A DNA stretch of 64,000 nt from an uncultured Alphaproteobacteria bacterium (lineage in GTDB: Bacteria; Pseudomonadota; Alphaproteobacteria; RF32; CAG-239), in contig CAKQNT010000009.1 of NCBI GenBank assembly GCA_934255405.1, positions 485 to 64,484 on the forward strand, in the 5' to 3' direction. This document shows, in pieces, positions 41,894 to 48,745 of this stretch. Below the pieces are notes generated by a model that saw nothing but the letters and a program-made list of their open reading frames with translations, had not been told where the DNA came from and ran no database searches. A program made the translations under genes and the position numbers. Positions within the stretch are counted from its first letter, which is position 1; the number at the start of each line of letters is the position of its first letter.

Positions 41894-44044
41894 CGCTTTG
41901 CTTCCTTTCCAAATCAGATATGCTGTAATATGTAGCCGCTGCGTCGGTAGGGTTTGCACGTTATAGCTTCCTTTCCAAATCAGATATGCTATAATTTGCT
42001 TTGCCGTCTTTGGTCACTACTTGTTGTTATAGCTTCCTTTCCAAATCAGATATGCTATAATTCAATTCTTTTACTGTTATGCTTAAAGTCCGTTATAGCT
42101 TCCTTTCCAAATCAGATATGCTATAATCGACACCGTTTTGGTTCAAAAGAATATATCGTTATAGCTTCCTTTCCAAATCAGATATGCTATAATGCCCGTT
42201 CCCGATATTCTAAAGCCGTCCTTGTTATAGCTTCCTTTCCAAATCAGATATGCTATAATAACCAGACATACCGTGTATCCATTCAACACGTTATAGCTTC
42301 CTTTCCAAATCAGATATGCTATAATTTCCTTGTTCAGCTCTCAAGTAATTATCTTGGTTATAGCTTCCTTTCCAAATCAGATATGCTATAATACAATATA
42401 GCGTTTTTTCAGTTCCACACCGGTTATAGCTTCCTTTCCAAATCAGATATGCTATAATACGTTACGTAAAAAAAACGGCGGATTTCCGGTTATAGCTTCC
42501 TTTCCAAATCAGATATGCTATAATGTTCCATATTCACATGCTTCATTAATAACTGTTATAGCTTCCTTTCCAAATCAGATATGCTATAATGGATACTCAG
42601 TAACATTCGACGAAGACTTTGTTATAGCTTCCTTTCCAAATCAGATATGCTATAATTCAATTCTTTTACTGTTATGCTTAAAGTCCGTTATAGCTTCCTT
42701 TCCAAATCAGATATGCTATAATCGACACCGTTTTGGTTCAAAAGAATATATCGTTATAGCTTCCTTTCCAAATCAGATATGCTATAATGCCCGTTCCCGA
42801 TATTCTAAAGCCGTCCTTGTTATAGCTTCCTTTCCAAATCAGATATGCTATAATAACCAGACATACCGTGTATCCATTCAACACGTTATAGCTTCCTTTC
42901 CAAATCAGATATGCTATAATTTCCTTGTTCAGCTCTCAAGTAATTATCTTGGTTATAGCTTCCTTTCCAAATCAGATATGCTATAATACAATATAGCGTT
43001 TTTTCAGTTCCACACCGGTTATAGCTTCCTTTCCAAATCAGATATGCTATAATACGTTACGTAAAAAAAACGGCGGATTTCCGGTTATAGCTTCCTTTCC
43101 AAATCAGATATGCTATAATGTTCCATATTCACATGCTTCATTAATAACTGTTATAGCTTCCTTTCCAAATCAGATATGCTATAATGGATACTCAGTAACA
43201 TTCGACGAAGACTTTGTTATAGCTTCCTTTCCAAATCAGATATGCTATAATCCGACAAAATGCCGTTTGCTAAATCAATTCGTTATAGCTTCCTTTCCAA
43301 ATCAGATATGCTATAATACAACGAAGTTACGGAAGACAAAGATTTTAGTTATAGCTTCCTTTCCAAATCAGATATGCTATAATTTCAAAAATCTTGTAAT
43401 CGCTCAAGTCATAGTTATAGCTTCCTTTCCAAATCAGATATGCTATAATACCCCGATCAGCAGCATAAAGGCTCGGGCGGTTATAGCTTCCTTTCCAAAT
43501 CAGATATGCTATAATTCACAATGTATTATAACGATTATTAAATTAGTTATAGCTTCCTTTCCAAATCAGATATGCTATAATCACTCTCATGCAAAAGGTG
43601 ATGTAGGTTTTGTTATAGCTTCCTTTCCAAATCAGATATGCTATAATAGATTGATAGCCTTTTGCCACCTGTTCAATGTTATAGCTTCCTTTCCAAATCA
43701 GATATGCTATAATAAATATTATAAACAAGAAAATGAATATCCAGTTATAGCTTCCTTTCCAAATCAGATATGCTATAATAAGACTTTATTCATAAAGCAA
43801 GTAAATGGAGTTATAGCTTCCTTTCCAAATCAGATATGCTATAATATCATGGTTCCAATTGCGCTTGACTAATTTGTTATAGCTTCCTTTCCAAATCAGA
43901 TATGCTATAATTTTGCTTTTGCCGCTGAATCGCTAGCTCCTGGTTATAGCTTCCTTTCCAAATCAGATATGCTATAATATGACGTAGCAGACCAATTCAT
44001 GATGGATTGTTATAGCTTCCTTTCCAAATCAGATATGCTATAAT
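41894..44044 (+). CRISPR. CRISPR array. Repeat consensus GTTATAGCTTCCTTTCCAAATCAGATATGCTATAAT (36 bp). There is one degenerate terminal repeat at 41894..41929, then 32 full repeats, with 32 spacers of 30-31 bp (23 unique).
   Basis: Direct reading gives a regular 66 bp periodicity. The first full repeat is 41960..41995 and the last is 44009..44044. Each repeat ends in TGCTATAAT. Confidence 0.95.
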
Positions 44045-44049
44045 AGATA

Positions 44050-44090
44050 CAAAATAACCTGTTGATTTTCCAACAGGTTATTTCTTTTTA
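44050..44090. terminator. Bidirectional rho-independent terminator between the array and the cas2 stop
   Basis: ATAACCTGTTG stem, ATTTTC loop, CAACAGGTTAT stem, flanked by an A-run and TTCTTTTTA. Confidence 0.6.
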
Positions 44091-44101
44091 GCAAACAAAA
44101 C

Positions 44102-48300: not shown

Positions 48301-48573
48301 TCCTTGCGCAATAAATAATTTTTTTATAGCTTGCATCCGACGAGCCTTGCGACGACAAACTCGACGAGCCAATCTCTTTTCTCGACGAGGCAAAGCTAAA
48401 GAAGCACCATCTTTAGGGTTCTCCGCTACTGGAAAGCAACGCACACCGGAACCAATAATTTTTCCTTCTATAATTTCACCGGTTTCTTCATTAAAAGACT
48501 CTTTGTCAAAATCAACTACTGCCCAACCGATTGAAGCAATTCCCAAGTCAAAGCCAAAGATTCTTTTCCTCAT
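45349..48573 (-). CDS. cas9: Cas9 (type II-C, about 1074 aa)
   Basis: RuvC-I motif GFDLGIASIGWAV at the N-terminus; HNH motif YLDIDHIIPYSRSFDNSYNNKVL; RuvC-III motif HHAQDAIVIA. No csn2 or cas4 nearby. The start at MRKRIF is preferred because a GAGGTG ribosome-binding site lies 7 nt upstream. Confidence 0.95.
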   Translation of the reverse strand: MRKRIFGFDLGIASIGWAVVDFDKESFNEETGEIIEGKIIGSGVRCFPVAENPKDGASLALPRREKRLARRVCRRKARRMQAIKKLFIAQGLAKNIDELNEMYAKQTGGDVWDLRIKGLSEKLSQEELLRVLTHLAKHRGFKSYRKSVEENDKEGGQVLQAIKDNKKLLSEGKSLAQVIVEKAGKFGKKRNCTKENAKGENKAVYNNSIPREEIERELDMIFEAQKQYGIFTEKLYNDFKRIAYRYRQIGSVGNMVGYCTFEKSEKRAPKNAPSSELFVALTKINNLSINDNGKIRFPEKNEREKIIELLKSTKTVKYKTLASKVFPKGTFFRDINYNKTEKKTKDGSIQKVDPEDVVFYEMKGWHQLKSKFTTEEWNNLQQNISLLDKIVNVIACEKDDERISNALKDGLGIEKKYISKFIQCNFDKFINLSLKALYKIIPFMEQGDVYNAACEKAGYDFKSNGNKLVEQKGILLLPIAEDKLTTVPVVNRTVAQFRKVYNAMVRKYGVPDQINIETGRDLKKTHDERMKIENKNKENQEDRKYASAELETYNIKGNATNILKYRLYQEQDGKCIYSGNVIDITRLDEIGYLDIDHIIPYSRSFDNSYNNKVLCLSSENRKKSNMTPYEYLKDSGCWDEFEARVKLLHNKTKENHLLDKNFVDRELEFKERNANDNSHISRYVKQYCEEGLDFSSSPWKNIKNRIQMRTGTLTDYLRHHWGLKKDRNESDKHHAQDAIVIACATQEMVNYLSYVSKIFENKYEVQEKKGETWYKTLKKRFEEPWCGFRDDVLASLDKIFVSRPPRKSATGSAHKDTVYPKSKEKGSLPIRYGMAEKENMFRLDVFRKEKSFYIVPIYTADLVSKEKFEDAPQPYVTIYNQNNEPVYDQNNRLVHALIDESYKFMFSLYKDDYVSLDSAEETIKGYVNQYNAQSGQLYIGSVDNSALYRINTSTFKIDDKILLKEKCVGVVEGFDEKNLQMLVRCADGIVRVGAEIKKNKSGDDTKNIKPLERYIKLSNEKKVSVSVLKNLKKYQVDLLGGLVEIKQEERTPIFNIKSNKQKMAERKAKKEQRS

Positions 48574-48639
48574 CACACACCTCACAAAAAATAATCTTGA
48601 CAATTAGTTTAACAACTAATAATATAAAAGCAAGAAGTT

Positions 48640-48745
48640 TTTGATGTTGTATCTGATTTGGAAAGGAAGCTATAATAATCGAAAATTTCGAGTAGGGCTC
48701 CGACGATAGTTGCTTTTGCAATGTGTAGTCGTCCCTTTTTTTATT
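48640..48745 (+). ncRNA. tracrRNA candidate. It has a 26 nt perfect anti-repeat (TATCTGATTTGGAAAGGAAGCTATAA), then a short hairpin (TCGAAAATTTCGA), then a terminator hairpin (GGGCTCCGACGA...TCGTCCC) and T7.
   Basis: The anti-repeat is the exact reverse complement of repeat positions 3-28. It is on the strand that lets it pair with crRNAs transcribed from the plus strand. It lies 70 bp upstream of cas9 and is divergently oriented. Exact 5' and 3' ends are uncertain. Confidence 0.7.

Follow-up and report, generated by a model that had tools for sequence, protein, structure and literature searches.

We examined a stretch of DNA of 64,000 nucleotides (nt) from an uncultured bacterium (contig CAKQNT010000009.1; hereafter the window) that carries a CRISPR-Cas locus (short palindromic repeats that are clustered and regularly interspaced, and CRISPR-associated genes), with galE (40888-41856) on one side and a gene of the ldh/mdh family (49043-49864) on the other. 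The locus consists of cas9, cas1 and cas2, an array of 33 repeats downstream of cas2, and a gene for a trans-activating CRISPR RNA (tracrRNA) upstream of cas9. Judged from these components, it very likely encodes a type II-C CRISPR-Cas9 system of adaptive immunity that is complete and probably active, belonging to an uncultured alphaproteobacterium of the human gut. The threonyl-tRNA synthetase of the window is 90% identical to proteins named ‘MAG: Alphaproteobacteria bacterium’ at NCBI (MAG, metagenome-assembled genome). Proteins identical to the products of cas1, galE and ldh are encoded, with gene order kept, on human gut metagenome contigs from Hadza and other cohorts, and the exact Cas1 protein is present on 14 gut-metagenome contigs.

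The cas operon and its Cas9

The three cas genes form one tight operon on the minus strand, with intergenic gaps of 2 and 12 nt. The product of cas9 (45349..48573, minus strand) is a protein of 1074 amino acids (aa) whose residues 6-1034 match TIGR01865 with a score of 680 bits, against a cut-off of 100. The other two genes are cas1 (44444..45346, minus strand), whose 300-aa product is of the type II class (TIGR03639 cas1_NMENI, 291 bits), and cas2 (44102..44431, minus strand; 109 aa; TIGR01573, 89 bits). We placed the start of cas9 at the ATG at 48573, which has GAGGTG ahead of it; the mechanical start of the open reading frame (ORF) was a TTG at 48603. With this start, the protein agrees exactly with database entry P0001 and with the product of the gene as called on independent contigs. 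Its catalytic residues can be read directly in alignments, namely D9 (RuvC-I), E517 (RuvC-II), H597 and N611 (HNH), and H734 and D737 (RuvC-III).

Between galE and ldh, no csn2 or cas4 was found among ORFs of at least 60 aa. The other ORFs of that size lie within the array, overlap cas9, or follow the tracrRNA gene (82 and 69 aa), and independent gene calls on the same contigs comprise only Cas9, Cas1, Cas2 and the 82-aa ORF. Thus, cas9, cas1 and cas2 are the only cas genes of the interval, which bears out the type II-C assignment of an earlier, first-pass annotation of this DNA; the residues listed above bear out the intact catalytic motifs that it noted.

Among solved structures, the top matches of the window Cas9 are all II-C enzymes (440-470 bits). 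The best is GeoCas9 of Geobacillus stearothermophilus (8jtj, 8uza) at about 470 bits (471 for 8jtj) over query residues 7-819, with RuvC-I, RuvC-II, HNH and RuvC-III collinear between the two proteins. However, only weak, fragmentary similarity (17 and 4 bits) follows residue 820, and the host of GeoCas9 belongs to another phylum. Structures of Nme1Cas9 and Nme2Cas9 from Neisseria meningitidis (6jdq, 6jdv and others) score about 440 bits; the match to Nme1Cas9 (6jdq, 442 bits, residues 6-795) is confined to RuvC, REC and HNH, whereas the C-terminal region that interacts with the protospacer-adjacent motif (PAM) is unaligned. Lower scores were obtained for CjCas9 (254 bits) and for the II-A enzymes SaCas9 and St1Cas9 (170-200 bits). 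Past residue 820, the window protein barely aligns with any solved Cas9. The structure scores, the gene content and the type II class of Cas1 together suggest that this enzyme belongs with the II-C clades.

Its closest relative in GTDB, sampled at one genome per species, is a Cas9 with 82% identity from an uncultured gut alphaproteobacterium (L001), whose locus has flanks unrelated to those of the window. About 15 further Cas9 proteins with 50-65% identity were found in MAGs labelled Alphaproteobacteria, ‘Azospirillum sp. 51_20’, Lactobacillales, Lachnospiraceae and Desulfovibrionaceae. In these relatives, the RuvC/HNH core is 60-92% identical to that of the window Cas9, and the last 270 residues are 34-74% identical or unalignable. 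An uncharacterized family in gut MAGs, of Alphaproteobacteria and others, was compared locus by locus (L001-L017, including ‘Azospirillum sp. 51_20’); its members have Cas9 proteins 57-82% identical to that of the window and share its tracrRNA and leader hairpin (see below), but differ from it in the C-terminal 270 residues and reside in unrelated genomic contexts. Many of the related loci have precisely the 36-nt repeat of the window. No more than 1-2 nt of it are changed in any of L001-L011, L015 and L017, and it is more diverged in L012.

The CRISPR array

The array (41894..44044, plus strand) contains 33 copies of the 36-nt repeat GTTATAGCTTCCTTTCCAAATCAGATATGCTATAAT, 32 of them perfect, separated by 32 spacers of 30-31 nt, 23 of which are unique; the sense of the CRISPR RNAs (crRNAs) is predicted to be that of the plus strand. 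The first-pass annotation had described a 32-repeat array downstream of cas2 with 23 unique spacers, perfectly conserved repeats and a degenerate terminal repeat at its cas-distal end. A repeat search agrees with all of this except the count, which holds for the perfect repeats and becomes 33 when the degenerate one is included. Every repeat scores 26.1 bits on the plus strand against the Rfam family CRISPR-DR34, under its gathering score of 35.

The degenerate terminal repeat (41894..41929, plus strand) is the first in the direction of crRNA transcription. Five of its six mismatches fall within the first 6 nt and the sixth is an A>G change within a TATAAT box, such that the six bases of the 5' end have decayed while the 3' part, including the -10-like box TGCTGTAAT, is retained. 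The distal repeats of three related loci (L004, L006 and L015) are likewise degenerate only in the 5' 4-10 nt.

The array holds fewer unique spacers than spacers because a block of nine spacer-repeat units is duplicated perfectly in tandem (42062..43251, plus strand; 2 x 595 nt). Positions 42062-42656 are identical to 42657-43251, and spacers 3-11 equal spacers 12-20 exactly. The same duplicated 33-repeat structure occurs in contigs L028/L035 and L036, although all contigs that carry it are short-read assemblies and its copy number is uncertain.

A tracrRNA gene and the direction of crRNA transcription

The sole repeat-like sequence outside the array is a 36-nt segment (48641-48676) that matches the reverse complement of the repeat. 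This segment belongs to a predicted tracrRNA gene (~48634..48741, plus strand, ends approximate) that comprises the anti-repeat (~48643-48676), a short UCGAAAAUUUCGA stem, and a GC-rich terminator hairpin followed by seven T residues (U7 in the RNA). A promoter-like site (48597..48625, plus strand; TTGACA-N17-TAATAT) precedes it, recognized as a consensus match only (10 of 12 positions). The predicted tracrRNA could form an uninterrupted 29-bp duplex with repeat positions 1-29, with a computed energy of -44.2 kcal/mol versus -14.2 +/- 2.9 for shuffled repeats. Sixteen related loci have a homologue that likewise lies upstream of cas9 and points away from it. When these are aligned, the anti-repeat shows almost no variation and the stem of the terminator carries compensatory changes (UA to CG in three loci, GC to AU in two), which corroborates the divergent tracrRNA upstream of cas9 proposed in the first pass. 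No tracrRNA family of Rfam was matched. Anti-repeats of II-C systems lie mostly upstream of cas9 (Chylinski 2013, PMC3737331).

Because the anti-repeat is plus-sense and its pairing partner is the 5' part of the plus-strand repeat, the crRNAs must likewise be plus-strand RNAs and run antisense to the cas genes. Array transcription opposite to that of the operon thus follows from the strand on which the anti-repeat and its terminator lie. Such opposite transcription is described for II-C arrays, and experiments have demonstrated it in N. meningitidis and Campylobacter jejuni (PMC3737331, PMC3936727).

Predicted promoters within repeats and a putative leader

The 3' end of every perfect repeat is a perfect extended -10 box, TGCTATAAT, of the TGcTATAAT type. 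This TGnTATAAT box survives in repeats that have otherwise diverged, such as those of L018 (TGGTATAAT) and L019 (TGATATAAT). In N. meningitidis, a box embedded in the repeat starts transcription at the sixth nt of each spacer, these promoters make processing by RNase III dispensable, and the repeat adjacent to the leader yields no crRNA (PMC5965381, PMC12477760). From the box in each repeat, its retention in diverged repeats and the N. meningitidis precedent, we infer at the level of consensus matches that each spacer of the window array may likewise have its own promoter.

At the cas-proximal end of the array, a candidate leader of 57 nt (44045..44101, strand unassigned) extends from the last repeat to the cas2 stop codon and contains AGAT beside the repeat and a 16-bp hairpin. 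The hairpin (44052-44083, 4 nt past the last repeat) is terminator-like on both strands and has the loop consensus TTGATTT. Across the window and 13 related loci (14 loci), 12 of its 16 pairs covary, with pairing kept through two-sided changes, and the hairpin is probably an intrinsic terminator that works in both directions. The AGAT-bearing cas-proximal flank is conserved across loci, whereas the cas-distal flanks are unrelated between loci. A conserved flank on this side would fit a leader at the cas2-proximal end, by analogy with Neisseria.

Together, these features suggest how the locus might operate. Transcription from each repeat is expected to start a few bases into the next spacer, such that each transcript would carry a guide of about 24 nt followed by the next repeat, and processing by RNase III would be optional. 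The first, cas-distal repeat has no spacer upstream and would have no function other than that of a promoter; this would account for a decay restricted to its 5' end. The last repeat would fire into the 57-nt leader, where the conserved hairpin could terminate both this transcript and that of the cas operon. New spacers would most likely enter at the cas2-proximal leader. The complex of Cas9, crRNA and tracrRNA would then cut double-stranded DNA beside a 3' PAM, and its targets may include gut Microviridae in their replicative form.

The ‘Neisseria-like’ layout named in the first pass is an apt description with regard to the antisense array and the -10 box embedded in the repeat. Other features shared with N. 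meningitidis are the minimal cas9-cas1-cas2 operon, the array downstream of cas2, the 36-nt repeat length, the degenerate repeat at the transcription-upstream end, a Cas9 of about 1080 aa, and strain-specific Cas9 variants. The N. meningitidis repeat ends in ...TGCTACAAT, which also contains an extended -10 box. Differences include the nearly perfect 29-bp helix between repeat and anti-repeat in the window, a host that is a gut alphaproteobacterium, and possibly the position of the tracrRNA gene, which lies upstream of cas9 here but between cas9 and cas1 in N. meningitidis. Every defining feature of type II-C systems that could be examined was found, and by sequence the locus is a standard member of this subtype that probably works in the Neisseria/Campylobacter manner.

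Some spacers resemble gut microvirus sequences

A blastn comparison of the 23 unique spacers with 50,697 INPHARED phage records returned only Microviridae, which are small phages with single-stranded DNA (three records, 27-28 of 30 nt). For spacer 26, the match is to bajarodmic virus 77 (28 of 30 nt, 2 mismatches), and for spacer 11 to bajarodmic virus 505 (27 of 30 nt, 3 mismatches). Both sites are within the major capsid gene, and the differences of these two spacers from the phage sequence are mostly synonymous. A further local search for protospacers with up to 7 mismatches added spacer 30, which matches virus 77 on the opposite strand with 5 mismatches, and spacer 31, which matches the IMG/VR microvirus L027, also on the opposite strand, with 6 mismatches. 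This distant virus was the only one recovered by an IMG/VR search for relatives of the microvirus capsid protein. About 0.004 matches with up to 6 mismatches would be expected by chance.

Among 92 spacers from related arrays, apart from two weak hits, only those of L004 gave hits, all to one gokushovirus. Four L004 spacers match Gokushovirus WZ-2015a, from human faeces, with 1, 1, 3 and 5 mismatches. Matches to both strands, as observed for the window array, would fit an attack on the double-stranded replicative form. The 23 unique spacers gave no match by blastn in the PLSDB plasmids; DNA-pattern scans of IMG/VR (near-exact, codon-wobble and 20-nt seeds) and scans of JGI metagenomes also returned nothing. 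No spacer matches another site in the window with up to 6 mismatches, and thus there is no sign of self-targeting within this stretch.

Probable exchange of cassettes and of a Cas9 domain at galE-ldh

Comparison with contigs whose flanking genes share 98% of their DNA sequence with those of the window reveals that homology is lost at 41865/41866 and regained at 48927/48928. The mobile cassette defined in this way (41866-48927, 7.1 kb) is slightly wider than the interval originally outlined for the locus, 41894-48745. At its cas-distal edge, 28 nt (41866..41893, plus strand) separate the end of homology to the alternative cassette from the degenerate repeat. Contig L042, which holds an unrelated cassette, loses homology after 41865, whereas L029 and L043 keep 41866-41893. 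At the other edge, a segment of about 183 nt between the tracrRNA terminator and the ldh flank (48745..48927, strand unassigned) is restricted to contigs that belong to the strain type of the window; L029, L042 and L043 have about 12 nt in its place. This segment overlaps the 69-aa and 82-aa ORFs, and one of its frames reads ...GYLKSRVFAEFGTQADFSAKKIAQALYNIEPQ...; the segment matched no Pfam, PHROG or PADLOC entry, nor did neighbouring ORFs of unknown function, and the 69-aa and 82-aa ORFs, the latter also as called on the same contigs, matched none in Pfam or PHROG.

Conspecific strains carry three different type II cassettes in this slot, including that of the window. The cassette of L043 and L044 has the same repeat, tracrRNA and degenerate repeat as the window, but its cas9 differs in a sharply bounded part. 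DNA homology between the window and L043 is 95% across 46142-48744, which takes in the first 2.4 kb of cas9, absent for the next 730 nt (45412..46141, minus strand), and 86% downstream of this replaced part, including cas1 and cas2. The replaced part encodes the WED and PAM-interacting region (~residues 812-1053). At the protein level, identity between the L043 Cas9 (1004 aa; L043:13910-16924) and the window Cas9 is about 97% through residue 811 (...SRPPRKSATG), falls to about 30% between 812 and ~1030, and is 68% over the final 44 residues. This pair has the appearance of a natural swap of the PAM-interacting domain, and may be analogous to Nme1Cas9, Nme2Cas9 and Nme3Cas9, which are strain-specific variants in Neisseria (Edraki 2019, as cited in PMC13431127).

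The third cassette (L042 and L045-47; L042:10970-16900) is unrelated to that of the window. Its Cas9 has 1154 aa, shares 25% identity with the window protein and reaches no more than 133 bits with any solved Cas9. The cassette further contains an inverted cas1 (303 aa) beside galE, 11 repeats of GTTATAGTTGACCGTCTAATTAATCTCTGATAAGCT, and cas2 (105 aa). The conspecific arrays have zero spacers in common. In a sister species, whose galE is 89% identical, the slot contains four sugar-metabolism and ABC-transporter genes and no CRISPR. An empty galE-ldh site was not found within the species, as each conspecific contig holds some type II cassette.

The strain comparison is good evidence, at the level of sequence, that both the cassette and the PAM-interacting module within cas9 have been exchanged by recombination. 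We consider it likely that the galE-ldh slot is an exchange point for type II systems with three cassettes, in which two of the Cas9 proteins share one RNA scaffold and probably recognize different PAMs, and that this diversification is driven by the targeted microviruses or other phages.

The L043 and L044 arrays also display an unusual feature of their own. In each (L043:11043-11382 and L044:11043-11382), 340 nt of non-repeat DNA lie between the degenerate repeat and the first regular repeat. This stretch is part of a 148-aa ORF that matches no family, and resembles an oversized ‘spacer’ or a captured fragment; in the L043 array, it had no Pfam, PHROG or PADLOC match.

Evidence against an active system and alternative explanations

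Several observations weigh against the interpretation presented above. No exact protospacer was found in INPHARED, PLSDB, IMG/VR or the JGI metagenomes, and hits whose best members have 2-6 mismatches fall short of demonstrating current immunity toward any known virus. The spacer searches thus produced imperfect Microviridae matches, and their four 3' flanks (GGTTCTTTGA, TTATTCGAAA, ACGGTTAGTA and TGATTGAGTT), where the first-pass annotation had proposed to look for the PAM, yield no clear motif. A pyrimidine occupies 3'-flank position 5 in all eight flanks when those of L004 are included, a pattern that is not robust. The promoter activity of the repeats, the transcription starts and the ends of the tracrRNA are all predicted from consensus matches. 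Furthermore, the two ends of the repeat form a partial palindrome with each other, so that TATAAT may have been conserved for reasons unrelated to a promoter. Regarding the site of spacer acquisition, only the L043 and L044 arrays are informative. They differ in a single unit, at the cas-distal end of the regular array, which may represent a deletion or an insertion at that end.

If these points are taken at their strongest, the locus could be intact in sequence yet functionally silent, either because it was recently transferred or because it is repressed, for example by an anti-CRISPR or through absence of expression. Besides the lack of exact spacer matches in any collection searched, this explanation could draw on the two assemblies with a complete array (L028/L035 and L036), which share an identical 33-repeat array and thus give no view of ongoing acquisition in this strain type. 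We nevertheless regard silence as improbable. The three cas ORFs are full length with their catalytic residues present, 32 repeats are identical, and the tracrRNA, leader hairpin and repeats are conserved. Moreover, the spacer sets of conspecific strains are wholly different, which indicates turnover on the time scale of strain divergence, and the window has no self-targeting spacer at the threshold given above. Intactness, spacer turnover between strains and the phage matches suggest that the system is probably live, as the first pass had proposed. An even less probable alternative concerns the direction of the array. Under the classical arrangement, a promoter in the leader would transcribe the array along with the cas operon, on the minus strand, and the plus-strand TATAAT boxes would be incidental. 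The cas-distal degenerate repeat would then mark the 3' end of the pre-crRNA, according to the usual rule and the default in Chylinski 2013. However, a minus-strand crRNA would have the same sense as the only anti-repeat of the locus and hence could not pair with it, whereas this anti-repeat, flanked by a promoter-like site and a terminator that both face the plus direction, is complementary to the 5' part of the plus-strand repeat. In addition, orientation predicted from the degenerate repeat is known to be wrong for N. meningitidis and C. jejuni (PMC3737331, PMC3936727). Plus-strand transcription therefore remains by far the better reading.

Two further alternatives deserve more weight, although we consider each of them unlikely. 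The nine-unit duplication could be an artefact of short-read assembly, produced by traversal of a graph loop or by mixing of two co-existing array variants. The supporting contigs all come from short-read metagenome assemblies, the two copies are 100% identical, contig L030 breaks within the array at the duplication, and contig L037 collapses the whole array to one spacer. Nonetheless, a junction of spacer 11, repeat and spacer 3 must occur in the reads for such a path to be built, the 33-repeat path was reached in two assemblies (L028/L035 and L036), and unequal recombination between identical repeats is an ordinary source of such duplications. We conclude that the duplication junction is real and that its copy number is less certain. 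The second alternative is that the low GC content of the cas genes is typical of this cas9 family and does not reflect recent horizontal acquisition by this genome. The cas genes have a GC fraction of 0.335-0.370 (0.26-0.31 at third codon positions, GC3), compared with means of 0.434 (standard deviation 0.050) and 0.442 (standard deviation 0.087) for GC and GC3 in the other 41 ORFs of the window. The AT-richness noted in the first pass is thus borne out by calculation, but as evidence of recent transfer it is weak, because most related loci likewise have a cas9 that is lower in GC than its flanks, by 5-10 points, in hosts where the GC fraction of the flanks ranges from 0.39 to 0.55. The window also has other low-GC genes (32459-33157 and three ORFs between 52485 and 55669). 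None of this contradicts mobility, given a slot that holds three cassettes in strains with 98% identical flanks and other genes in a sister species, and given Cas9 proteins with 57-65% identity and repeats that are the same or 1-2 nt different in MAGs labelled Alphaproteobacteria, Lactobacillales and Lachnospiraceae. Horizontal mobility is therefore supported more strongly by the genome comparison, through cassette polymorphism and absence from the sister species, than by low GC.

Neighbouring genes and other variable segments

The ldh/mdh-family gene that flanks the cassette encodes a product of 273 aa, whose match to Ldh_1_C ends at profile position 114 of 174. Members of this family are usually about 310-320 aa long. 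Since the length of 273 aa recurs in all strains and in most sister-species contigs, the product is probably a genuine short form.

Several other segments of the window differ in composition or vary among strains. The region 51600-55700 is low in GC and contains three ORFs between 52485 and 55669 (GC 0.26-0.34) that encode a GNAT acetyltransferase, a DUF1574-like protein and a 416-aa protein of unknown function; a gene for an ASCH-domain protein was called in this region on matching contigs. Its segment 51600-52078 is variable among conspecific strains, and the region as a whole gave no PADLOC hits. An ORF of 232 aa (32459-33157, plus strand; GC3 0.20) is missing in the conspecific L043; it had no PADLOC match and has no Pfam hit on record. 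Two ORFs nearby, of 850 aa (33407-35959, minus strand) and 460 aa (30817-32199, minus strand), had no Pfam or PADLOC match. Finally, contig L042 carries an insertion of 4.6 kb (L042:568-5169), absent from the window, at a site corresponding to ~36058-36202, beside a tRNA gene (36200-36273). This insertion encodes a DpnII-type restriction-modification set (two methyltransferases and DpnII) and a DndB-like protein, and about 145 nt are duplicated on both of its sides.

Implications

The locus leaves the understanding of type II-C systems unchanged. It adds one further compact II-C Cas9, of 1074 aa, with a predicted crRNA and tracrRNA, from the little-studied uncultured Alphaproteobacteria of the human gut. 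The spacer matches link gut Microviridae of the gokushovirus-like kind to this host group, a useful detail for phage-host assignment, for which CRISPR-based prediction is already routine in the case of microviruses (PMC9239249). The most interesting by-product of the analysis is the polymorphism of cassettes and of the PAM-interacting domain at galE-ldh. This slot appears to offer a clean natural example in which exchange of a PAM-interacting domain and replacement of whole cassettes both occur at a fixed chromosomal site, and for genome editing it could supply Cas9 variants with a common guide scaffold and probably different PAMs.

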